Shown here piece by piece: positions 23,852-36,605 of a stretch of DNA of 64,000 nucleotides. The stretch is from positions 49,867 through 113,866 of the forward strand of contig JANLWW010000060.1 in assembly GCA_031364805.1 (NCBI GenBank). Direction: 5' to 3'. The notes beneath the pieces were generated by a model that had not been told where the DNA came from, searched no databases, and saw nothing but the letters and a program-made list of their open reading frames with translations. The position numbers and the translations under genes are program-made. Numbering within the stretch: position 1 is the first letter of the stretch; each line of letters begins with the position of its first letter. The stretch is from Acidobacteriota bacterium (lineage in GTDB: Bacteria; Acidobacteriota; Vicinamibacteria; Vicinamibacterales; UBA2999).

Positions 23852-25882
23852 ATGGCGAAGCCAGGCGCTGCTCCCACGGAATCCAACGTCCAAACCGCGT
23901 GTCCGCTCGATTGTCCCGATGCCTGCACGCTGGACGTGACACTACGGTCGGGCCGCATCACGAAGATCGATGGGTCGAAGGACAACCACATCACCAACGG
24001 CTACATCTGCGCCAAGGTGCGGACCTTTCACGAGCGCGTCTACGGCGACGACCGCCTACTCTACCCGGCAATCCGGCGCGGCGCCAAGGGGGCCGGGCAG
24101 TTCAAGCGCGTCAGCTGGGACGATGCGCTCGACTTGATCGCGACCAAGATGCGGGAAGCGAGCGCCTCCGGGGGAGCCGAAACCATCCTGCCACTTTGCT
24201 ACGGCGGCTCGAACGGCTTCATGACACAGGACTACGCGGATGCGATCCTGTTCCGCCGGCTTGGGACCTCGCGCCTGTTGCGCACGGTGTGCGCGGCGCC
24301 GACCGGCGCGGCCAACCAGGGCCTGTACGGCAAGATGGCATCGGTCAGCTACGAAGACTATCCGTCGGCCAAGATGATCATCATCTGGGGCGTGAACCCC
24401 GGCGTGTCGGGCATTCACTTGATGCCGTTCCTCAAAGACGCACGCGACAATGGCGCTTATGTCGTGGTGCTCGACCCGCGCGCCACCACGGTGGCACGGC
24501 AGGCCGACTTGCATCTGGCGGTGAGGCCCGGCACCGACCTCCCGGTGGCACTGGCCATTCATCGCTACCTCTTTGCAGAGGGCTTCGCCGACCAGGCTTT
24601 CCTCGATCAGCACACCAACGGCGCCGGCGAGCTGCGCACGAAGGCCGAACCGTGGACGTTCGAGCGGGCCGCTGACGTGAGCGGCATCGATGCCGGGCAA
24701 CTGCGCGGACTGGCCGAGCGCTATGCGAAGGCGTCGCCCGCACTGGTCAAGTGCGGATGGGGGCTTGAGCGCAACCGCAACGGCGGCAGCGCCGCGGCAG
24801 CCGTCCTCGCCCTGCCTGCAGTCGCGGGCAAGTTCGGCGTGCGCGGCGGCGGGTTCTCGATGAGCAACTCGGCATCGTGGAATATCGATCGCACGTGGCT
24901 CACCGATGCCGAACCACCCACCCGCGCCGTCAACATGAACAAGGTCGGCCGCGTGTTGACCGAGCCGGAAGGCACGCCGGTCAACATGCTGTTCGTCTAC
25001 AACTGCAATCCCGTCGCGATCCTGCCCGATCAGCGCCGCGTAATTCGCGGCTTCGAGCGCGAAGATCTCTTCACGGTAGTGTTCGATCAGGTGATGACCG
25101 ACTCGGCGATGTATGCCGACGTTGTGCTGCCGGCTACTACGTTTCTCGAACACTACGACTTCGCGCGCGGCTACGGCCCGATCACCCTGCAGTTGGGCAA
25201 GCCGGTAATCGATGCGGTCGGCGAATCGCGGCCAAACAGCGATGTCTTCCTTGAGTTGTCCCGCCGCCTGGAACTGTCAGTCGAGGGGGACCCCGAAGAC
25301 GACCTTGAATCGATGCTCGCGGTGCTCGGCCACCTGCCGCAGCAAGTTGGCAACGACTTACGCGAGAACTGGAAAGCGGCGCCGCCGCACGACGGACGTC
25401 CCGTGCAATTCGTGGACGTGTTTCCGAAAACCACTGACCGCAAGGTCGACCTGTTTCCCAAAGCGCTCGATACGCAGGCACCGATGGGCCTCTACGGCTA
25501 CCAGCCGGATCCCGGCACCTCGGAGTTTCCCCTGGCGTTGATTTCACCTGCAAGCGATCGCACCATCAGTTCAACCCTCGGCGAATTGCCTCGCCCCGAA
25601 GTGCGGTTAGAAATGAACCCGGACGATGCGTCAGCGCGCGGGGTGCAGGAGGGCGATGGGCTGCGGGTCTGGAACGGGCTCGGGGAAGTACGCATCAAGG
25701 CGCACCTCACGCACCTGATGAGGCCCGGCACCGTCGCCATGCCTAAGGGGGTGTGGCGTCGTAATACGGCGAACGGCTACACGTCGAACGCGCTCTCGCC
25801 CGACAGCTTGTCGGATTTGGGTGGTGGCGCGTGCTTCAACGATGCGCGCGTGCAGGTTGAGAAGACTGAGAAGGCTTATTGA
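23852..25882 (+). CDS. molybdopterin-dependent oxidoreductase with N-terminal 4Fe-4S motif
   Basis: CPLDCPDACTLDV cluster motif; molybdopterin oxidoreductase and C-terminal MopB barrel-like pattern; no in-frame TGA. Confidence 0.85.
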   Translation: MAKPGAAPTESNVQTACPLDCPDACTLDVTLRSGRITKIDGSKDNHITNGYICAKVRTFHERVYGDDRLLYPAIRRGAKGAGQFKRVSWDDALDLIATKMREASASGGAETILPLCYGGSNGFMTQDYADAILFRRLGTSRLLRTVCAAPTGAANQGLYGKMASVSYEDYPSAKMIIIWGVNPGVSGIHLMPFLKDARDNGAYVVVLDPRATTVARQADLHLAVRPGTDLPVALAIHRYLFAEGFADQAFLDQHTNGAGELRTKAEPWTFERAADVSGIDAGQLRGLAERYAKASPALVKCGWGLERNRNGGSAAAAVLALPAVAGKFGVRGGGFSMSNSASWNIDRTWLTDAEPPTRAVNMNKVGRVLTEPEGTPVNMLFVYNCNPVAILPDQRRVIRGFEREDLFTVVFDQVMTDSAMYADVVLPATTFLEHYDFARGYGPITLQLGKPVIDAVGESRPNSDVFLELSRRLELSVEGDPEDDLESMLAVLGHLPQQVGNDLRENWKAAPPHDGRPVQFVDVFPKTTDRKVDLFPKALDTQAPMGLYGYQPDPGTSEFPLALISPASDRTISSTLGELPRPEVRLEMNPDDASARGVQEGDGLRVWNGLGEVRIKAHLTHLMRPGTVAMPKGVWRRNTANGYTSNALSPDSLSDLGGGACFNDARVQVEKTEKAY

Positions 25883-25985: not shown

Positions 25986-26186
25986 CTATCCGACAGACGG
26001 AAGCTTGCCCCGTCCGCCTCGGCTGGCTTGGCCACCCTTGCGTCCGGCGCGTCGCGCTTCATCGGCTGACCATTCGTGCGCGGTTCCCTTGGCATGAGCG
26101 GCTCGGCCGCCTTTGCTGGCAATTTCGCGCTGCTTCTCTGCTGACATCGAGGCAAAACCCCGGCGTGCCTTTCGAATCTCAAACAC
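25986..26186 (-). CDS. KGG-repeat general stress protein (YciG/Con-6-like)
   Basis: EKQREIASKGGRAAH and EARRAGRKGGQAS repeats; the start may be the internal Met. Confidence 0.7.
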   Translation of the reverse strand: MFEIRKARRGFASMSAEKQREIASKGGRAAHAKGTAHEWSADEARRAGRKGGQASRGGRGKLPSVG

Positions 26187-26391: not shown

Positions 26392-27168
26392 ATGATGACC
26401 AAATCGAAGCTGGCAGTGGTCTTCGCAATCGCGCTGCCGCTGGTCGCCGGGGCCGCGATCCTAAGCCCGCGAGGTCGGGCATTCGCCAGCCACCTCGACG
26501 AAAATCGGCGCTGCTGCCAACTGACATTTGGCCGGGCATTTGTCATCGCCGTGCAGGAGACGCTGGGCAACCCGCCCTATCCGTCAGAGATCGGGCAGGA
26601 CAAGTGGGTCGCCGAAGTGATGTTCCCTGAGGTTCAGGACGGCGTCTTCCTGGACGTCGGTTCCGGTCACGGCCAGATCGGCTCCAACACCAAGGCGCTG
26701 GAGGATCGAGGCTGGACCGGCATCTGTGTTGACCCCTTCCCAACCGCCATGGAAGGACGTGACTGCCAGATGGTCAAGGAAGTCGTCTCGAGCGAGGCCG
26801 GCAAGAAGGTGTCGTTCCATACCCACGACGGGCTGGGCGGCATCGCCGATACGCTGGGGAAGTGGAAAGATGAAGCCTCAAAGGCGCCCACCGTCGAGCT
26901 GGTCACGGTGACGCTGGCCGACGTCTTGGCGCGAACCGGTGCGCCCGCATTCATTCACTTTCTCAGCCTCGACATTGAAGGCGCGGAACTCGAGGCACTG
27001 CGCGGCATCCCCTTCGACAAGTATCAATTCGGCGCGATGGCCATTGAGCACAACGAAGAGGAGCCCAAGCGCGGCGACATCATTGCGTTCCTGGCAGAAC
27101 GTGGCTACCGGCGCGTCCATACTTACAAGCAGGACGACTTCTTCGCCCCGGCGACGGCCCAGCGTTAG
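26392..27168 (+). CDS. FkbM family methyltransferase with N-terminal membrane anchor
   Basis: VFLDVGSGHGQIGSN; HFLSLDIEGAELEAL. Confidence 0.75.
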   Translation: MMTKSKLAVVFAIALPLVAGAAILSPRGRAFASHLDENRRCCQLTFGRAFVIAVQETLGNPPYPSEIGQDKWVAEVMFPEVQDGVFLDVGSGHGQIGSNTKALEDRGWTGICVDPFPTAMEGRDCQMVKEVVSSEAGKKVSFHTHDGLGGIADTLGKWKDEASKAPTVELVTVTLADVLARTGAPAFIHFLSLDIEGAELEALRGIPFDKYQFGAMAIEHNEEEPKRGDIIAFLAERGYRRVHTYKQDDFFAPATAQR

Positions 27169-27383: not shown

Positions 27384-27442
27384 AACCGTGATGATAGCCG
27401 GGATGCGCCGTCGGGGTAAGATTGGAACGAGGCGATGTCTTT

Positions 27443-27772
27443 ATGAGCATGTGTGGAGGACCGACGGGTCCAGCAAATGAACCGGCCACCAATAAGTCGG
27501 GCCGCAAGGTTTTTTGCGTGAAGTTCCAGAAGGACCTTCCTGGCCTCGACGCGGCGCCCTGGCCGGGTGAAATTGGCCAGCGCGTTTACGAGAACGTCTC
27601 AGTCCAGGCGTGGAAGCTCTGGGAAGAACGCCAGAAAATGATCCTCAACGAATACCGCCTGATGCCCTGGCAGAAAGAGGGCCAGGAGGTCATTCGCAAG
27701 CAGATGGAAGAATTCTTCTTTGGGGAAGGGTCGGCGCTGCCGCCGGACTTCGTGCCCCAGCAATCGAAGTAA
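27443..27772 (+). CDS. yggX: oxidative-damage protection protein (Fe2+-trafficking, YggX family)
   Basis: VFCVKFQKDLPGLDAAPWPGEIGQRVYENVS..AW..W...Q.MILNEYRL matches the YggX pattern. Confidence 0.8.
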   Translation: MSMCGGPTGPANEPATNKSGRKVFCVKFQKDLPGLDAAPWPGEIGQRVYENVSVQAWKLWEERQKMILNEYRLMPWQKEGQEVIRKQMEEFFFGEGSALPPDFVPQQSK

Positions 27773-27831: not shown

Positions 27832-29121
27832 TTATCGGTTGACGACGTCCAGCCAGGGGTCGATGGTCAGGCGCAGGCAGGCATGCGCGTTGCGCACGGC
27901 CTGCTCTGCGCCGTCGGGTGTCGGCGCATGCGCGAAGATGAACCCGAGATAGCTTGACCCCTCAGGCAACGCCAGCAAGTGCTGGTCCGCCTTCGCCGTG
28001 ATCAGTACCTCGTCCACACCCGCCACCGCCTTCGCTTCGTCCACGCCAGCCGCGCCGCGAAACAATCCGCTGCGCGGAATCGGGATCATCATCACAGCGG
28101 ACGCTTCGCTCTCGCGGAGCCACTCGCCGACCGGCTCGCCGACTGCGTGGCGTAGCAGCAACTGTTCGAGGCCAATTGACGGCTCACCCGGTTTGACGAA
28201 TCGCAAGGCTCTTGCACAGAGGCCGCCGATCGGCCGCGCCGCAACTTCCAACACGTAAACGCCCCGGCTGTTGACCCGGCACTCGGCGTGCAGGGGCCCA
28301 TGATGCAGGCCGAGCGCCTTGGCGGCGCGCTCGACGACATCCTTGATCTGCCGCTCGGTGCCGACATTGACTCGCGACGGCGTCACGTAGATGGATTCTT
28401 CGAAGAACGGACCCTCCAGTGGATCCGGCTTGTCGAAGATGGCCAGCGTGTGGAACACGCCGTGTTCGAGAATACCCTCAAGCGCATACTCCGCACCGGG
28501 GATATAAGACTCGATCTGGATGACGTCCGACCCGGGATCGCGCAGCTCCTTGATGTCGTTCGACGCGAGCAGCCTCTGCACCCGGCCAAACGCCGTCACA
28601 AAGCTCAACGCATCGTCAGCGCGAATGACACCGCGGCTCGCGGAAAGCACGGTTGGTTTGACAACGGCCGGGAACGTCACCTTCGATAACAGCGTCGAGG
28701 GATCAATCGTCGTCGGCACCGCGAAATAGTCAGGCACCAGCAGTCCTGCGGTCTTCAGGCGTTCGCGCGAGAGGCGCTTGTCGCGGGCGATTCCAGCCGC
28801 CTCCGGCGAATGTCCGGGCAATCCGAGCTGCCGCGTAATGTCTGCGGCCATCACGCCTGGCCGGTCGCCGACGACCAGCACGCCCGACACGGGGCGCGCG
28901 TCCAGCGCCTTCAGCACCGCATCAACCGAGCGCCGCTCCTCGTGAAAGCGGACCGGAATCGCGCCGTCGCGCCAGGGGTCGGCCAGCTGATCGCAGCGGT
29001 CGGTCGCGTACACGACCTCGATGCCGAGGCTCGCGGCCGCTTCCGCGAACATGCGGGTCTGGTAGCCGGTGGTCGTGGCGAGCAGGAGTACTCGCCGGGT
29101 TTGCCCGGAGCGAGGCGTCAC
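27832..29121 (-). CDS. ATP-grasp domain protein (carboxylate-amine ligase-like)
   Basis: PreATP-grasp Rossmann-like N-domain followed by ATP-grasp pattern FPAVVKP....SRGV...; GTG start at 29121 preceded by GGGAGA. Confidence 0.8.
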   Translation of the reverse strand: MTPRSGQTRRVLLLATTTGYQTRMFAEAAASLGIEVVYATDRCDQLADPWRDGAIPVRFHEERRSVDAVLKALDARPVSGVLVVGDRPGVMAADITRQLGLPGHSPEAAGIARDKRLSRERLKTAGLLVPDYFAVPTTIDPSTLLSKVTFPAVVKPTVLSASRGVIRADDALSFVTAFGRVQRLLASNDIKELRDPGSDVIQIESYIPGAEYALEGILEHGVFHTLAIFDKPDPLEGPFFEESIYVTPSRVNVGTERQIKDVVERAAKALGLHHGPLHAECRVNSRGVYVLEVAARPIGGLCARALRFVKPGEPSIGLEQLLLRHAVGEPVGEWLRESEASAVMMIPIPRSGLFRGAAGVDEAKAVAGVDEVLITAKADQHLLALPEGSSYLGFIFAHAPTPDGAEQAVRNAHACLRLTIDPWLDVVNR

Positions 29122-29203
29122 GCGAGTCTCCCGAGCGGGATATCGAGTCGAAGGGCGTGGCCTGAGCGAGGCATTACTCGAGTCGCCCGACCGAGTCGAA
29201 GGG

Positions 29204-30574
29204 TCATAGCAGAGCCAACTGCTCTGCGGTTGGTTCCGCTCAACAGTACCAGGGCTCGTTCATGTAAGGGATCGACGTGCGTGGATCCAGTGATGTGGTG
29301 ATCTCGCGATCTCGTGGTTTGGCCAGATTGCGAATCGCGTCAAAGGTCTCGTGGCGTGGTGCACTGATGTGGGCACCAGCGATAGCCATGGCGCTGGCTT
29401 GCAGTTCATCAACGCGGGAATCGGGATGTCGCCACGGAAACGTCAGCGAGGTGCGATCGAAGGGGCCGACCAGCGCCTGGATGTCTGGCAACTCAAGCAG
29501 TCGCGATTGCCAGGTCACCAGCAACCGAATGCCCCACTGCACAGGGGCCACATTGGCGACCAGGCCCAGCTCGGCGACGACGTCAAGCAAATCGCGGTAG
29601 CTCTCGACTGTCGTCCACGGCGTGAAGGCGACGAATGTCGGCACCAGCGTCAGCCCGGCGTCGCGACACAACCTGGCGGCCGCATAGAAATCGGCGCGCG
29701 TGTGTCCCTTCTCGAGTTTTGCCAACACCTCGTCGTCCACCGATTCGACCGCGCTGGTCACGAACAGGCAACCGGTGCTGGCCAGTAGTGGCAGCAGTTC
29801 ACGCTGCTGAAGCAGGTGTTCGACCTTGATGATGGCGTCGTAGGTCAACGCGGGGAACTCGGCATGCAGCGCTTCGATCAGTTTGCGCGCGTGCGTGGGA
29901 CCATTCAGGAAGTCCGGATCACCAAAGGTGATGTGGGTCGCACCCAGCGCGACCTGCGCGCGAACGTCTGCAAGCACCACAGCAACCGGGATCACGCGGA
30001 ACTGACCGTCGTAGACCGGAACGATCGGGCAATGCCGGCAACGATGCTTGCAGCCGCGCGTCGCCTCGGTGGCGCCGACTATCTTTTGAGAACCATCGGG
30101 CATCTGCAGGCTGGCGTACCGATCAAGGGCCGGTAGTCCAGTCCGGTCCGGTGGAATGAAGGCCAAGCGGGCCAAAGGTGCCAGATGTGCCTGGGGTGCC
30201 AAGGTGCCGGTGCTCAGCGCGCTGGCTGCGTTCACCATGTCCTGTTCGCACTCGGGACCGAGCACGATCGAGACGCCGTTCTCGCGCAGCAGTGCGTCGT
30301 TCAGGGGCGCGTACAAGCCGTAGGCGGCGATCGTGATCGCCGGATTGGCGGCTCGCAGGCGCTGCACGACGGGAATCGCCAGGCGCGTCGCCGTGTGCAT
30401 GGGCAGGTAGATCGCGGCCAACTGCGTGGCGGCGACCACGTCGGCGGATAGTTTTTCGCGCGACAAGTCGACGCACGTCACGTCGAACCCGGCCCGCTTC
30501 AACCACGCCGCCGGCGAAGCCAGGCCGAAGGGCTGGCGGCCAAGGTCGTAGGTACTCAACAGAACGACGCGCAC
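29204..30574 (-). CDS. B12-binding radical SAM protein, probable selenoprotein with C-terminal C-U-A-E-P tail (UGA at 29242-29240 recoded)
   Basis: B12-binding N-domain; CKHRCRHC (CxxxCxxC). The in-frame TGA is followed by GCG GAA CCA... up to TGA at 29206-29204, and a SECIS-like hairpin lies 12 nt after the UGA. The core CDS 29240..30574 is certain; the extension is inferred. Confidence 0.7.
29209..29227 (-). promoter_or_regulatory. candidate bacterial SECIS hairpin
   Basis: GCAGAGC-AGUUG-GCUCUGC, perfect 7-bp stem with 5-nt loop containing G and U; the stem starts 12 nt after the UGA. Confidence 0.6.
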
Positions 30575-30604
30575 AGCTGCGATCTTACTCTGTGCGGTTC
30601 CGAG

Positions 30605-32104
30605 CTACTTCGGCGTCTGGCCATGCTGCGGCAGCAGCTTGCGAATTGACGGCACCAGCGCGAGCAGGATGAGGCCGGCGACGATGGCAAACGCCGCGAC
30701 GGTGCCGAACAAATCCGGAAGCGCGAACGATTCGTAGAGGCCAGAGACACGACCGCCGATGAAATTGCCCACCGACGTGGCCAGGAACCAGACGCCCATC
30801 ATGAGGCCGGCAATGCGCGCCGGTGCCAGGGTGGTCATGGCGCTCAGGCCCACCGGGCTCAATGCCAGCTCGCCAATCGTGTGGAGCAGATACGTGGCTG
30901 TCAGCCACATCGGGCTGACCAGGGCGCCCTGCTCTGCCATGCGGGCGGGGATCACGAGGATCAGGAAGCCGGCGCCGACGAAGATCAAGCCAAACGCGAA
31001 CTTGGTCGGGCTGGTCGGTTCCTTCCCGGTCGATGCGAGCTTGATCCACAACCAGGCGATGATCGGCGCAAACGCGAAGATGAATAACGAGTTCATCGAC
31101 TGGAACCAACTGCTGGGATAGGCCATGCCGGCCACTTCATTGCGCGTGCTGCGGTCGGCAAACAGGTTGAGCGTGGATCCCGCCTGCTCGAACACCGACC
31201 AGAACAGCGACGCGGCGAGAAACAGGACACCGATGACGTAGAGGCGCTTCTTCTCGTCGGGCGTCCACCCGCCAGAGAACATCAGCCAACCGAAGAAGCC
31301 GACCACCACCAGCAACAGGAACACGCCCGCGGCATCGGAGACCTGCGTGGCCGTCACCTGGATGACGCCAAGGTAGGCGGCCAGGCCGGCCACGATGACC
31401 AGCGCCGCGGCACCGCCGACCCAGGTCTGCACCTGGCGCTTCCACTGGGCTGCAATCGCCGGTGTTGGAGCGGGAGCAGGGGCGAGGCCGGCATCACCCA
31501 GGTTGGCACTGCCCATTACATACTGGATCACACCAATCAGCATGCCGACGCCGGCGGCGGCGAATCCCAGGTGCCAGTTCACTTGCTGGCCGAGGTACCC
31601 GCACACCAGCGGCGCCAGGAATGCGCCGAGGTTGATCCCCATGTAGAAGATCGAGAAGCCGGCATCGCGGCGAATATCGGTCGCTCCGTATAGCTTGCCG
31701 ACGATCACGCTGACATTGCCCTTGAGCAGGCCGGTGCCAATCACGATCAGGAACAAGCCGAAGTAAAACATCGCCAGCGACGGCACCGCCATGCTGAAGT
31801 GCCCGGCGGCGATGATGATGCCACCATAGAGCACCGCGCGCCGCGGGCCAATTAGCCGGTCGGCAATCCAGCCACCCGGCAGCGTCGCCAGGTAGACCAT
31901 CGAGGTATAGAGGCCGTAGATGGCACCGCCCTGGGCGGCATCAAAGCCCAATCCGCCCGCCGACAGCGGCGCGGTCATGTACAGCAGCAGCAGCGCGCGC
32001 ATGCCGTAATAGCTGAACCGTTCCCACATCTCTGTGAAGAACAACGTTGACAGACCACGGGGGTGGCCGAAGAACGCGCGATCCTGAGCTGCAGGTGTGG
32101 CCAT
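30605..32104 (-). CDS. POT/PTR2 family di/tripeptide:proton symporter
   Basis: FGHPRGLSTLFFTEMWERFSYYGMRALLLLYM signature; about 14 TM helices. Confidence 0.85.
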   Translation of the reverse strand: MATPAAQDRAFFGHPRGLSTLFFTEMWERFSYYGMRALLLLYMTAPLSAGGLGFDAAQGGAIYGLYTSMVYLATLPGGWIADRLIGPRRAVLYGGIIIAAGHFSMAVPSLAMFYFGLFLIVIGTGLLKGNVSVIVGKLYGATDIRRDAGFSIFYMGINLGAFLAPLVCGYLGQQVNWHLGFAAAGVGMLIGVIQYVMGSANLGDAGLAPAPAPTPAIAAQWKRQVQTWVGGAAALVIVAGLAAYLGVIQVTATQVSDAAGVFLLLVVVGFFGWLMFSGGWTPDEKKRLYVIGVLFLAASLFWSVFEQAGSTLNLFADRSTRNEVAGMAYPSSWFQSMNSLFIFAFAPIIAWLWIKLASTGKEPTSPTKFAFGLIFVGAGFLILVIPARMAEQGALVSPMWLTATYLLHTIGELALSPVGLSAMTTLAPARIAGLMMGVWFLATSVGNFIGGRVSGLYESFALPDLFGTVAAFAIVAGLILLALVPSIRKLLPQHGQTPK

Positions 32105-32150: not shown

Positions 32151-34289
32151 TCAAAACCGCTTACGGCTCTCGAGGTTGGCCTCGATGTCGGCCTTCGTCC
32201 GCCACATCGGCCGCATCTGCTTGCGCGAGGCCAGCGGCAGCTGGTCGTCGATGTGCTTGGAGCCCTTCTTCGACCAGTTGCCGTAGTTGAGCAGCACTTC
32301 GGCGCGCTGCGGCACCGAGTACTCGATCACCGCGTAGAACGTGTCGCCCTGTACCGCCTCGACCTTGCCCTCCTTGAACGGGCTGACGCCGATGGTGCGG
32401 ATGGCGCCGAGCTGCGACGGCGCGCCGTTGCCGGGTAGGTCGGTGTTGCCGCGGCGAAAGCGCATCACGTCGCCCCACTTCACCGACAGCGACCCGTATT
32501 CCTTCTCGACCTCACCGGCCACCTGGTCGAGCGCCGCCATCGCCCGGGACGGGTCCTTGAAGCCGCGCGGAGTGTCCAACGGACGCGCGTCGTCGGTGGG
32601 CACCTTGAAGCCGCCGATGTCACCGAACGCCGGTCCGGCGGCCGTCATGAACTTGTAGAAGAGCAGCATGCCGTCGCTGTCCACTTCGGCTTGACGGTCC
32701 CACTTGGCCAGCACGTCGGCGGCGCGCCTGGCACGTGCGGTGCCGCGGGCCTTGGCAGTGGCTACGAGGTCGTCCACGAACTGGTCCGCCGTCTCGACGC
32801 GGGTCGAGAGCTTCCACGACTTGATGTTCTCGAAGGTCATCTTCTCGGGCGCCGTGCTGAGAATACGGATGCCGCGCTGGGCGCGCTGCGTGATGCCCTG
32901 CGGCGCAGCGAAACCGGCCGCGAACTTCGTGGCATCGAGCGTGGCCGGATACGTGGACGTCCACGGCATGTCGTTCGAGTTCTGCACCCAGCCCTGCGGC
33001 GGGTCGATGACTTTCGGAATCTGGTCGTAGGGCACGATTTCGCGGCCGATCAGATCCGACTTGTCGCCGGGCACGACGCCCTGCCAGAAGCGGTAGTCGC
33101 CGGTGGCGTGCTTCCACAGCGTCGCGTTGTAGACGTAGGCGATGTGGCCGTCGCGGTCGGCGTAGGCCGTGTGAAAGAGCGGGAGCTGCTGCATGCGCAT
33201 CGCCGCCTCCCACTCCGTGAAGTTCTTCGCCAGGCCCATTCGCCAGAACTGTTCGAACATCTTCGGGCGGTCCAGGGCGGCCACGCGCATCGCGATCGGC
33301 GCGCCGCCACGTTCCGCGACGACCGGCCCGTGCTCGCTGCGCCGCACGGTCAGCGTCTCTTCCCTGGTCGTGCCATCGGCCTGCCGCACCTTGATGGTCT
33401 CGCTATGGGTGTCAAATTGCTTGACCTGGCCGTCGAGCAGGTAGCCGCCGTCCTTCAGGACCAGCCGGTAGAGGTCTGATTGCGAGGGGTTGTTGGTGGT
33501 CTGCGTCCAGCCCACATACTCGGTAAAGCACTGTCGCAGCACCGGGAAGCCGACCCATACCGCGCCGTAGGAGGTGACGCCGGGAGCGGTCAGCTGCACC
33601 TCGAAGTAGGTGTGGATGTCGCCCCACTGCAGGTGCGAGTTGCTCATCAGCAGCGCCTTACCGGTAGCCGAGCGGGCCGGAGCGATGGCCCATTCGTTCG
33701 AGCCGTGCACGTCCTGTTCCCAGCGCGCCAGCCGGCTTTCGAGCCGGCGCGGGCTCACGACCCAGTCGTAGTGGATGACGCGCAGGCCATGCGCGTAAAC
33801 GTCTTCGACCGTGATCGGCAGCACGCCCTTGGCCTCGGCGCTGATCTCGGCTTGGTGCTCGTCGGCCCACGCGTTCAGGCCCCTGGCAAAGGCGGCGATC
33901 AGCGGCGCGAATTCCTGGCTCTGCCCCGCCGCCCACTGTTTCGCCGTCGCCGGCAGGCCGTTGGTGCGCACCCAGCGGTCGGAATCGAGGTACTGCTCGC
34001 CGTAGAACTCCGCGCCGCGGCCTCGCGCCTGGGCGTAGAGGCGAACCAGCAGTTCGCTGTGGGCCTCCATTTGGGCGTAGCCGTACGCCTGGAACAGGCT
34101 CGGATGGTCGGGCGCGAAGATATGCGGGACGCCGTAAGTGTCCCAGAGGATCTCCGTGCCGGTGGCCGCGGCCTTCTGCGCTTCCAGCGCCGGAGCCGGA
34201 TTGCAGGCGCCCAGCACCAGGGAGGCAACGACGACGGCCGACAAGCACGACGAGCGAACGAGACGGGCCGAGAACGATAAACGGGTCAT
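32151..34289 (-). CDS. penicillin acylase family Ntn-hydrolase (possible acyl-homoserine-lactone acylase)
   Basis: Signal peptide; HGSNEWAIAP nucleophile-Ser junction; family length about 710 aa. Confidence 0.8.
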   Translation of the reverse strand: MTRLSFSARLVRSSCLSAVVVASLVLGACNPAPALEAQKAAATGTEILWDTYGVPHIFAPDHPSLFQAYGYAQMEAHSELLVRLYAQARGRGAEFYGEQYLDSDRWVRTNGLPATAKQWAAGQSQEFAPLIAAFARGLNAWADEHQAEISAEAKGVLPITVEDVYAHGLRVIHYDWVVSPRRLESRLARWEQDVHGSNEWAIAPARSATGKALLMSNSHLQWGDIHTYFEVQLTAPGVTSYGAVWVGFPVLRQCFTEYVGWTQTTNNPSQSDLYRLVLKDGGYLLDGQVKQFDTHSETIKVRQADGTTREETLTVRRSEHGPVVAERGGAPIAMRVAALDRPKMFEQFWRMGLAKNFTEWEAAMRMQQLPLFHTAYADRDGHIAYVYNATLWKHATGDYRFWQGVVPGDKSDLIGREIVPYDQIPKVIDPPQGWVQNSNDMPWTSTYPATLDATKFAAGFAAPQGITQRAQRGIRILSTAPEKMTFENIKSWKLSTRVETADQFVDDLVATAKARGTARARRAADVLAKWDRQAEVDSDGMLLFYKFMTAAGPAFGDIGGFKVPTDDARPLDTPRGFKDPSRAMAALDQVAGEVEKEYGSLSVKWGDVMRFRRGNTDLPGNGAPSQLGAIRTIGVSPFKEGKVEAVQGDTFYAVIEYSVPQRAEVLLNYGNWSKKGSKHIDDQLPLASRKQMRPMWRTKADIEANLESRKRF

Positions 34290-35174: not shown

Positions 35175-36605
35175 CTATTTCCGATAGTCCAGAGCGGGCT
35201 TTCGGTCCGCCAGCCTGGTCGAGTAAATGAAGTTCGGTCCGCGTCGCTTGTCGAATTCCTCCCGCGCCTTGGCGATGTGCGTGGGGTCGGAGAACAGATC
35301 GATCGCCATCAGGCTCATCGACTTGGCAGCCACCATCATGCCCTTGGCGCCAATCGACATGCCGCCGGCCGCCACCGCTTGCCAGCTGTGGGCCGGTGTA
35401 CCTGGAACCCACGTCGCCGCAGTCAGCTGCACCGTCGGCACGCGCCAGCTGATGTCGCCGAGGTCGGTGGAGGCGCTGCCGATGCCGGCCTCCGGGGCGA
35501 ACACCGAGTTGGCACTGTCGATCGGCGGCAATTCGCCCTCGAGCGACTTGCGAATGCCTTCCGCGAACTGGAGCTCAGCCGGCGTGTATTCATAGCCGCC
35601 GACCTTGCGCAGGTTCTCTTGCATCAGGCCAACGAGGTAACTATTCGGCAACACATTCCATACCGCGCCGGTCAGCTCCAGTTCCATGGTCGTGCCGGTC
35701 CCGAGCGCGGCTCCGCGCGCCGCGTTGGTAATGCGCTCCCAGATGCCTTCGAGCACCCGCATATCGTTGTGACGCGCGTAGTAGTACGCCTCCGCGAAGT
35801 CGGGAACGACATTCGGCGCGCGGCCGCCGTTGGTGATCACGTAGTGGATGCGTGAGTCGGAGGGCACGTGCTCGCGCATCAGGTTCACCATGGCGTTCAT
35901 CGCCTCGACGCCGTCGAGCGCCGAGCGGCCGCGATCGGGCGCGGTGGAGGCATGCGCCGACAGACCGCGGAACCGGAACTTGCCGGTGATATTGGCGAGC
36001 GTGCTCGACGCGCTCGACGCATTGCGATCACCAGGATGCATCGTCACCACCGCATCGACATCGTCAAAGAGGCCGGCGCGGAGCATGTAGACCTTGCCGG
36101 CGCCGCCTTCTTCGGCCGGTGTGCCATAGAAGCGCAAGGTGCCGGACCGCTGGTTGGCGATCAGCCACTCTTTCACGGCGATGGCCGACGCAGTGGCGGC
36201 GGTGCCAAACAGGTGGTGCCCGCAGCCGTGTCCCGCGCCTTCGGGCACCAGCGCGCGACGATCCGCTTCGGCCGCCTGCGACAGGCCGGGCAAGGCGTCG
36301 AACTCGCCGATGATTCCGATCACCGGCTTGCCCGATCCCCACGTGGCGGTGAACGCGGTGGGAATTTCTGCGACGCCGGCGTTGACGGTGAAGCCGGCCG
36401 CCTTCAGTTGCTCCTGCAACAACGCGCTGCTCCTGGTTTCCTGGTAGCCGACCTCGGCGAACGACCAGATCTTCTGCGCGACGTCGCGATAGACAGCCGC
36501 CTTCTGATCGATCGATGCCATCACCGCGTTGGCATCCATCGTCTGGGCCGAGCCGGACGAGGCGCCGAGCAGGAGGGCAGCAACTACCGTCGCAATCCGC
36601 TTCAT
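35175..36605 (-). CDS. M20 family amidohydrolase (AbgB-like), secreted
   Basis: Signal peptide; GEFDALPG, GHGCGHHL metal-binding pattern; paralog of the genes at 44203 and 45824. Confidence 0.8.
   Translation of the reverse strand: MKRIATVVAALLLGASSGSAQTMDANAVMASIDQKAAVYRDVAQKIWSFAEVGYQETRSSALLQEQLKAAGFTVNAGVAEIPTAFTATWGSGKPVIGIIGEFDALPGLSQAAEADRRALVPEGAGHGCGHHLFGTAATASAIAVKEWLIANQRSGTLRFYGTPAEEGGAGKVYMLRAGLFDDVDAVVTMHPGDRNASSASSTLANITGKFRFRGLSAHASTAPDRGRSALDGVEAMNAMVNLMREHVPSDSRIHYVITNGGRAPNVVPDFAEAYYYARHNDMRVLEGIWERITNAARGAALGTGTTMELELTGAVWNVLPNSYLVGLMQENLRKVGGYEYTPAELQFAEGIRKSLEGELPPIDSANSVFAPEAGIGSASTDLGDISWRVPTVQLTAATWVPGTPAHSWQAVAAGGMSIGAKGMMVAAKSMSLMAIDLFSDPTHIAKAREEFDKRRGPNFIYSTRLADRKPALDYRK

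Follow-up and report, generated by a model that had tools for sequence, protein, structure and literature searches.

Organization of the locus

The stretch analysed here (the window, 64,000 nucleotides with a G+C content of about 64%) comes from an Acidobacteriota bacterium of the order Vicinamibacterales (NCBI GenBank assembly GCA_031364805.1, contig JANLWW010000060.1, positions 49,867 to 113,866 of the forward strand). On its minus strand, three open reading frames (ORFs) encode a proton-dependent oligopeptide transporter (POT), a radical S-adenosylmethionine (SAM) protein whose frame continues through an in-frame TGA codon, and an ATP-grasp ligase (Table 1). A gap of 30 nt (30575-30604) separates the POT and radical SAM genes; with the TGA read through, the gap from the radical SAM gene to the ligase gene is 82 nt (29122-29203). 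The same coordinates had been given in an initial annotation of this DNA, which described a co-directional trio of minus-strand genes and proposed an unrecognised pathway of peptide import, radical chemistry and amide-bond formation. In the comparisons reported below, the conserved unit is a two-gene module, accompanied by helper genes, and not the trio. It consists of the radical SAM gene, whose product is a predicted selenoprotein with ArsL as its nearest characterised relative by sequence comparison, and the gene for an ATP-grasp of the L-amino acid ligase (LAL) type.

A scan of the region for sigma-70 promoters returned no promoter-like sites. Terminator-like sites were detected only inside genes, with none between the three genes.

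Table 1. Positions of the genes and sequence elements at the radical SAM-ligase locus (numbering of the window).
Feature	Position	Strand	Remarks
POT/PTR2 transporter	30605-32104	-	499 aa; PF00854, TIGR00924
CUAEP-tail radical SAM selenoprotein (predicted)	29204-30574	-	456 codons including selenocysteine, then stop; 444 aa up to TGA (29240-30574); NF040546
In-frame UGA, almost certainly selenocysteine 445, directly after Cys444	29240-29242	-	conserved tail and Cys homologs
SECIS-like hairpin	29209-29227	-	covarying pairing in selenocysteine-type loci
L-amino-acid-ligase-type ATP-grasp	27832-29121	-	429 aa, GTG start; ATP-grasp_4, LAL_C2 and ATPgrasp_N
YggX-type Fe(2+)-trafficking protein	27422-27772	+	convergent with ligase gene; PF04362, 111.6 bits
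46-nt direct repeat, two copies	29092-29137 and 29148-29193		76% identity; covers ligase start and spacer

The radical SAM protein and its relation to ArsL

The radical SAM protein matched the NCBIfam model NF040546 over model positions 1-467 of 468 with 614.9 bits (cut-off 500, E = 8.8e-185). It also matched PF04055, contains the cluster motif CX3CX2C (C175, C179 and C182), which was invariant in three family alignments, and ends in the C-(U/C)-A-E-P tail that is a criterion of NF040546. Judged by these sequence features, it is a member of this family of CUAEP/CCAEP-tail proteins, which is named in NCBIfam but uncharacterised. In the survey by Haft, the family is likewise listed as uncharacterised, and motifs of adjacent Cys and selenocysteine (Sec) are described as rare and as occurring elsewhere in heavy-metal-handling proteins. 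The family comprises at least 566 clusters at 50% identity (E <= 1e-30), with source names including Acidobacteriota, Thermomicrobiales, Dehalococcoidia, Acidimicrobiales and Planctomycetota; nearly all full-length representatives either end in W(Y/F)C, truncated at the Sec codon, or carry W(Y/F)CCAEP.

The second-best model was that of ArsL (NF040542; 259.8 bits, under its cut-off of 450), and comparison with the RCCLKC-tail protein of Bacillus cereus gave 34% identity over 406 aa (E = 1e-74). Homology to ArsL extends over the full length at 29-35% identity. The setting of the CX3CX2C motif is shared, the N-terminal domain is Rossmann-like in both, and in both C-terminal tails a vicinal Cys-Cys/Sec dyad occupies the aligned position. 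A joint alignment with the ArsL family contained 59 invariant columns, among them RGCxHxCxxC…YxG and HxxFxDxD, and placed C444 and U445 on the first two Cys residues of the ArsL motif RCCLKC, Sec445 corresponding to the second. The families differ in the tail itself, where RCCLKC of ArsL is replaced by C-U/C-A-E-P and the LKC segment with the third Cys is missing, and in about 45 extra residues that precede the tail in the window protein. They also differ in distribution: CUAEP loci are chromosomal, syntenic and very widespread in Acidobacteriota and Chloroflexota, whereas ArsL occurs sporadically in ars islands.

ArsL breaks the Cγ-S bond of SAM, sets methylthioadenosine free and moves the 3-amino-3-carboxypropyl group onto As(III) by a mechanism that involves an Fe-C intermediate. 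All three tail Cys residues bind arsenite, and removal of the tail leads to loss of product formation with retention of SAM cleavage. The enzyme is active without cobalamin.

In the initial annotation, the protein had been labelled a class-B, cobalamin-binding radical SAM enzyme, for which methylation or rearrangement of unactivated carbons was the expected chemistry. Neither the label nor the expectation held up. The Pfam B12-binding profile PF02310 scored 16.6 bits, below its threshold of 32.1, and the best structural match of an AlphaFold (AF2) model (pLDDT 90.8, pTM 0.89, with a low-confidence linker preceding the tail) was the cobalamin-free AprD4, with a template modelling (TM) score of 0.72. 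Class B methyltransferases such as TsrM, TokK, Mmp10 and OxsB likewise have a radical SAM barrel behind a Rossmann-like N-terminal domain (Foldseek TM 0.6-0.68), but differ from the window protein in these two respects. According to a 2026 review, AprD4 and ArsL homologs bind no cobalamin despite falling among B12 radical SAM enzymes in similarity networks (PMC12931638), and the chemistry of ArsL is cobalamin-independent cleavage and aminocarboxypropyl transfer, as described above. The window protein is modelled as a core resembling that of ArsL, joined to a Rossmann-like N-terminal domain of the non-cobalamin kind, and does not look like a cobalamin methylase. At the same time, it falls outside ArsL in its model score, in the absence of a three-Cys tail and in the absence of an ars context. 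It should not be annotated as ArsL, though by homology and context it is most likely ArsL-like in its action. An auxiliary Fe-S cluster bound by additional Cys residues was considered and rejected, as C269 and C303 are conserved in some clades only and not family-wide.

Selenocysteine codon and SECIS-like hairpin

Read-through of the TGA extends the protein as …EPWYC-U-AEPTAEQLALL*, with the stop codon at 29204-29206. The tail was surveyed in 79 homologous loci in which it was readable. The same in-frame TGA, with W-(Y/F)-C before it and a conserved AEPxxEQxAL(L/V/I) that runs to a stop codon behind it, was present in 58 of these loci, and a Cys codon replaced the TGA (CCAEP…) in 21. In the window, a hairpin resembling a selenocysteine insertion sequence (SECIS) begins 15 nt after the U of the UGA and is formed by a 7-bp stem (GCAGAGC/GCUCUGC) and the loop AGUUG. 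Each of the 57 unique sequences of the Sec type has a hairpin of this kind (15-33 nt downstream of the UGA, stem of 6-7 bp, loop AGGUG or AGUUG), whereas the 21 Cys-type loci have none. Across the Sec-type sequences, 91.5% of cells were paired, as compared to 38-51% when the 3' arm was slid by 1-2 nt, and compensatory changes were found at three pairs, namely 16:32 (CG 36, GC 4, AU 8), 17:31 and 19:29. Because the downstream tail is conserved, Cys replaces the codon in homologs and the hairpin covaries, the in-frame UGA of the window is almost certainly read as Sec; the Cys-Sec tail put forward in the initial annotation is thus backed by the TGA loci, the Cys loci and the compensatory changes alike. 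An Rfam search returned no match to a SECIS family, its sole match being due to chance (E = 0.31), and no tRNA-Sec was found in the 64-kb window, in which the only tRNA is a tRNA-Leu.

Adjacent Cys-Sec residues near the C-terminus, with interchange of Sec and Cys, are also known from HgcA, MerB-like SAO proteins, MerT variants and thioredoxin reductase (GCUG). The folds of these proteins are unrelated, whereas the dyad of the window protein sits on a radical SAM protein of the ArsL lineage.

The same TGA feature (…ESWFC-TGA-AEPLEDP…) was found in a homolog on the megaplasmid of Thermomicrobium roseum, a cultured aerobe. In T. roseum DSM 5159 (NC_011961, TRD_RS12835, L084:9935-11470), the annotated coding sequence ends at the in-frame TGA, beyond which the frame continues as AEPLEDPSGPVASQVRMVDQPLR*. 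From its sequence, TRD_RS12835 looks like a mis-truncated selenoprotein, and the gene offers a convenient experimental source.

The ligase and its pairing with the radical SAM gene

The ligase matched ATP-grasp_4 (99.3 bits), LAL_C2 (52.0 bits) and ATPgrasp_N (31.2 bits), all above cut-off. Its best match in the PDB was the L-amino acid ligase BL00235 (3VOT, E = 9e-35), and BacD was matched with E = 1e-12; the similarity is to ligases of free amino acids and not to RimK/LysX. By domain content and PDB matches, the protein is a bona fide member of the LAL family with the full architecture, which agrees with its previous designation as an ATP-grasp carboxylate-amine ligase. The same three-domain architecture, including LAL_C2, is found in BL00235, BacD/YwfE, TabS, DdaF and RizA, L-amino acid ligases from antimetabolite pathways; where known, their genomic partner supplies a non-proteinogenic amino acid. 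The window ligase differs from these in that it scores far under every equivalog cut-off (e.g. 55.9 bits vs 850 for BacD) and has a radical SAM selenoprotein as its partner, a pairing that was not found described for L-amino acid ligases.

Relatives of the radical SAM protein are encoded at no fewer than 581 places (at least) in species-representative genomes, of which the best 80 loci were analysed (54-80% identical to the query, all Acidobacteriota-like), along with a diverse set of 80 metagenome loci (33-39% identical). Genes in related loci were called heuristically, by filtering for G+C content at third codon positions (GC3) combined with targeted tblastn searches. Most loci derive from metagenome-assembled genomes (MAGs), some with doubtful taxon labels, and many of the metagenome contigs are short.

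Among the 80 genome loci, 73 carry a ligase gene directly downstream of the radical SAM gene and on the same strand. The seven loci without a downstream ligase comprise four contig ends and three true absences, and one locus shows a convergent sulfotransferase-LAL fusion. The gap between the two genes has a median of tens of nt and ranges from about 0 to about 180 nt, with some genes abutting or overlapping at stop and start. Other genes are also syntenic in these loci, namely those for LigD_N (59/80), YggX (69/80) and a molybdenum cofactor (Moco) oxidoreductase (42/80); the Terriglobia loci L075 and L077, however, keep the radical SAM-ligase pair though they lack POT, LigD_N and the Moco gene.

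The pair recurs in reversed order in three deep lineages (radical SAM 34-40% identical, GC 0.42-0.70), where a NifU gene on the opposite strand is followed by LAL, radical SAM and PF11307 genes with overlapping or short-gap junctions. One of these lineages is named Acidimicrobiales, and the ligase of this MAG is 32% identical to the window ligase over its full length (E = 5e-55), a divergence about equal to that of the radical SAM proteins (about 32-35% identical). Unbiased clustering of the flanking ORFs in the diverse metagenome loci gave NifU-like proteins (25 loci) and LAL (22 loci) as the top two groups, the LAL gene lying mostly upstream on the same strand at a median gap of 37 nt. The neighbourhood check thus bears out the co-occurrence of radical SAM and ATP-grasp genes, and the partnership is very probably a functional one. 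A coupling of the two genes that occurs in either order and in different phyla, along with Fe-S helpers and, for some of the lineages, PF11307, is not described in the literature searched, nor did that literature contain a characterised pathway that matches, in agreement with the initial annotation. A mirror-tree-style correlation of identities was rejected as uninformative, given that the value for the ligase (r = 0.92) lies within the range for unrelated neighbours (0.77-0.95), as is explained by vertical inheritance.

In the fusion (L054:11420-13606, Pyrinomonadaceae MAG), the ligase follows an N-terminal sulfotransferase domain in a protein of 728 aa encoded convergently with the radical SAM gene, which hints that the product is further modified in some lineages. 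Several contigs carry odd taxon names (L014, L016, L042 and L043 'Bifidobacteriaceae'; L081 'Cyanobacteria bacterium'; L007, L009 and L039 'Acidimicrobiia') but bear the full Acidobacteriota synteny of LigD_N, POT, radical SAM, ligase, YggX and Moco genes. They probably represent mis-binned or mislabelled MAGs.

The POT gene

The identity of the transporter as a proton-dependent oligopeptide transporter was confirmed by PTR2 profiles (PF00854, 226.8 bits; TIGR00924, 452.9 bits) and by the signature ExxERFxYY, which is present as EMWERFSYY in the N-terminal region. Its place in a conserved trio was not. Of the 76 loci with sufficient upstream DNA, 41 have a POT gene right at the start of the radical SAM gene, co-directional in 15 and divergent in 26. 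It is replaced by a sodium:solute symporter (SSF) gene in six and by a major facilitator superfamily (MFS) gene in three, and 26 loci have no adjacent transporter. No POT gene was found beside family members outside Acidobacteriota (Thermomicrobiales contexts, deep lineages and diverse metagenome loci), and queries with POT, SSF and MFS gave no matches in the 80 diverse metagenome loci. The POT gene is a lineage-specific neighbour and not part of the conserved core. In the window, the gene arrangement suggests that it is probably co-transcribed with the radical SAM gene; that POT handles the product or substrate in this genome is possible but on balance doubtful.

A gene for a penicillin-amidase-family protein (N-terminal nucleophile hydrolase) with a signal-peptide-like N-terminus precedes the POT gene on the same strand at a distance of 46 nt (32151-34289, minus strand), and an M20 peptidase gene is located at 35175-36605. 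The amidase gene is absent from all 80 related genome loci. These neighbours suggest a peptide-scavenging context for POT.

ArsL-type plasmid loci

Genes of the ArsL type (RCCLKC tail) were inspected in ars islands on the plasmids pAH820_272 of B. cereus (L085), pAACI01 of Alicyclobacillus (L086), pB2.1 of Priestia (L087) and pSUH1_C of Pantoea (L088). These islands also carry a LAL-type ATP-grasp gene, along with genes for an MFS transporter or aquaporin, arsM, a CobW GTPase, GNAT or ArsN, and a carboxymuconolactone-decarboxylase-family protein; adjacent transporter genes are a frequent feature of ArsL loci as well. The ATP-grasp of the Bacillus island has LAL domains, the Pantoea copy has BL00235 as its best PDB match, and the two are orthologous (35% identity, E = 4e-73). 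The canonical arsQML locus of Pseudomonas (L089) lacks a ligase. Since the ArsL product is an α-amino acid and the pairing is an independent parallel, the ligases of both families may act on the product of the radical SAM enzyme. For the ArsL-type islands, the presence of a ligase suggests peptide-conjugated arsinothricin or a ligase-based resistance; no report of a ligase in such islands was found in the literature searched.

Beyond two short matches of a generic kind, genes of the ars type (ArsM, ArsR, ACR3, ArsC, ArsN1, aquaporin, CobW, ArsQ, ArsB and ArsH) gave no significant matches in 88 loci (1.43 Mb). Genes of this type were present in every ArsL-type locus examined. Because of this difference, arsenic is unlikely to be the normal substrate, and it was rejected as the default, though it is chemically conceivable.

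Proposed pathway and alternative explanations

How SAM is cleaved, what the tail does, which step comes first and what product results are all inferred here from homology and gene context. The [4Fe-4S] cluster of the radical SAM protein would cleave SAM at the Cγ-S bond with release of methylthioadenosine, and SAM's 3-amino-3-carboxypropyl group would be passed to a soft, thiophilic atom or small ligand (X) held by the flexible Cys-Sec tail. The resulting non-proteinogenic L-2-amino-4-(X)-butanoate would then be condensed by the ligase, with consumption of ATP, with another amino acid to yield a dipeptide, in a reaction likened to those of BacD, TabS and related ligases that process antimetabolite warheads. 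POT may move the product or substrate here, a role that would fall to SSF or MFS proteins, or to no adjacent transporter, in relatives. YggX in the window and NifU-like proteins elsewhere would probably supply or repair the Fe-S cluster, which would fit an Fe-C intermediate of the ArsL type. As a whole, this sequence of ArsL-like transfer and dipeptide ligation is offered tentatively, as quite possible though not quite probable.

Several observations weigh against it. Identity to ArsL is just 29-35%, at which the mode of SAM cleavage could differ, and the tail provides two chalcogen ligands as compared to three Cys residues in ArsL. The function assigned to any member of NF040546 rests on homology, and no neighbouring gene indicates a candidate substrate. 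Within Acidobacteriota, the pairing signal is in part a matter of vertical inheritance in a syntenic, housekeeping-like region. Of the diverse metagenome loci, 33 extend for 1.3 kb or more to either side; a ligase was present in 12 of these (NifU-like in 14), and a ligase is absent from four Thermomicrobiales contexts including T. roseum, two of which have an adjacent MFS gene. As the Chloroflexota contexts have no ligase and only 12 of the 33 diverse loci have one, the ligase step is not universal.

The main rival keeps the partnership of radical SAM enzyme and ligase but assigns them a different chemistry. A conventional 5'-deoxyadenosyl radical would modify an amino acid or dipeptide, the ligase would make or consume the substrate, and the Cys-Sec dyad would serve as a swinging selenenylsulfide redox arm that donates electrons or a hydrogen atom, comparable to the GCUG end of thioredoxin reductase. 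In its favour, a single position is occupied by either Cys or Sec, as is typical of redox-active sites; only two chalcogens are present, the third Cys of ArsL being missing; metalloid-related genes were found in none of the 88 loci; and the low-confidence linker before the tail in the AF2 model is consistent with mobility. However, ArsL, the closest characterised homolog, performs another chemistry, the dyad aligns exactly with the substrate-binding CC of ArsL, and CU motifs are tied to heavy-metal handling in the survey by Haft. On this evidence, a redox arm is considered unlikely, though still a serious competitor.

A pathway of all three genes, as envisaged in the initial annotation, would comprise import of a peptide by POT, cobalamin-dependent class-B methylation or rearrangement, and re-ligation by the ATP-grasp. 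The co-directional genes with their 30-nt and 82-nt gaps and the lack of terminator-like sites between them are in line with this, as is the finding that 50 of the 76 Acidobacteriota loci have some transporter gene immediately beside the radical SAM gene. Set against these are the sub-threshold B12 match, the AprD4 fold and the cobalamin-free ArsL homologs, as well as a POT gene that is divergent in 26, replaced in nine and absent in 26 of the 76 loci and was not found outside the phylum, which leaves such a pathway very unlikely.

The target could instead be a protein or ribosomal peptide, possibly the acidic tail of the radical SAM protein itself, in a process resembling the biosynthesis of ribosomally synthesised and post-translationally modified peptides (RiPPs) or LysW/RimK-like modification. 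Pairs of ATP-grasp and radical SAM proteins occur in RiPP clusters, some LAL-type enzymes such as PGM1 ligate peptides, and the radical SAM tail contains a conserved Glu. Yet no conserved small ORF or precursor-peptide gene was found beside the enzymes, the spacer between them being variable (about 0 to about 180 nt) and sometimes absent, and the upstream ORF of the window is probably due to a local duplication. The ligase, moreover, resembles enzymes acting on free amino acids and not RimK/LysX, and neither length nor sequence of the tail tracks the presence of the ligase. Modification of a peptide or protein is accordingly rated as highly improbable.

That the two genes have no functional link and are adjacent merely by inherited synteny in a conserved chromosomal region is the least probable explanation: LigD_N, YggX and Moco genes are likewise syntenic and identity correlations are as high for unrelated neighbours, but the pair survives the loss of synteny in L075 and L077, is found again with its order inverted where the radical SAM proteins are about 34% identical to that of the window, and has a parallel in the ArsL-type loci.

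Aminocarboxypropyl transfer followed by ligation would have consequences beyond this locus. To our knowledge, ArsL is the only radical SAM enzyme bearing a canonical motif that generates an aminocarboxypropyl equivalent in place of a 5'-deoxyadenosyl radical. The uncharacterised sister family of ArsL is much more extensive, occurs in high numbers in dominant soil phyla and has Sec at the substrate-binding position of ArsL, and its repeated coupling to an amino-acid ligase and Fe-S helpers provides a concrete, testable pathway hypothesis. Conceivably, although this extrapolation is a fairly unlikely one, the CUAEP/CCAEP-tail enzymes could form a second, far larger branch of ArsL-type aminocarboxypropyl transferases that create a C-heteroatom bond other than C-As (e.g. 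C-Se, C-S, C-Te or C-Sb) on a substrate that the Cys-Sec tail carries. With the ligase, this would yield a so far unseen amino acid or dipeptide, made by a large share of soil Acidobacteriota and some Actinomycetota, and by Chloroflexota without the ligase step. Such a compound could act as an antimetabolite or metallophore, or be a small molecule with redox activity. If the chemistry is true, the scope of non-canonical radical SAM enzymes would be wider, and a widespread new metabolite might perhaps be involved.

Putative Fe-S helpers and other neighbouring genes

In addition to its frequent synteny in the genome loci, the YggX gene lies directly upstream of the radical SAM gene and on the same strand in the metagenome loci L140, L141 and L178. 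From this gene context, YggX is a candidate helper in Fe-S maintenance.

Genes for a Cys-rich protein of the PF11307 family (Rv0495c-like) directly follow the radical SAM gene at L098:8419-9183, L101:3987-4721 and L100:2148-2318, and also in L120, L126 and L133. The operons with the order LAL, radical SAM and PF11307 occur in low- and high-GC lineages and have a divergent NifU-like gene upstream. A homolog of PF11307 was not found in the window. DUF169 genes (PF02596, COG2043) lie within a few kb of CUAEP-family genes in nine metagenome contexts that differ in other respects (L103, L104, L113, L121, L139, L156, L166, L169 and L182).

Two further candidate partners were rejected. Divergently oriented genes for pyridoxal-phosphate (PLP) enzymes that flank the radical SAM gene in L019, L021 and L026 had suggested an aminotransferase partner, but these enzymes are not of one family with that of T. 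roseum, to which they show only a weak local similarity (E = 5e-8). A 625-aa 'GNAT' protein near the T. roseum gene, considered as an ATP-grasp, is a fusion of GNAT and ABC-ATPase instead.

Through the 46-nt direct repeat, a second copy of the ligase start region lies in the spacer that precedes the ligase gene, and this gives rise to an 18-codon upstream ORF (MPRSGHALRLDIPLGRLA) that overlaps the GTG start codon. The repeat probably represents a local duplication and is not a conserved element, because the length of the spacer varies among relatives. On the far side of the YggX gene, the window encodes an FkbM-type methyltransferase (26392-27168, plus strand; syntenic in 8/80 loci), a KGG stress-repeat protein (25986-26186, minus strand) and the molybdopterin oxidoreductase with an Fe4S4 domain (23852-25882, plus strand) that is syntenic in 42 of the 80 genome loci.

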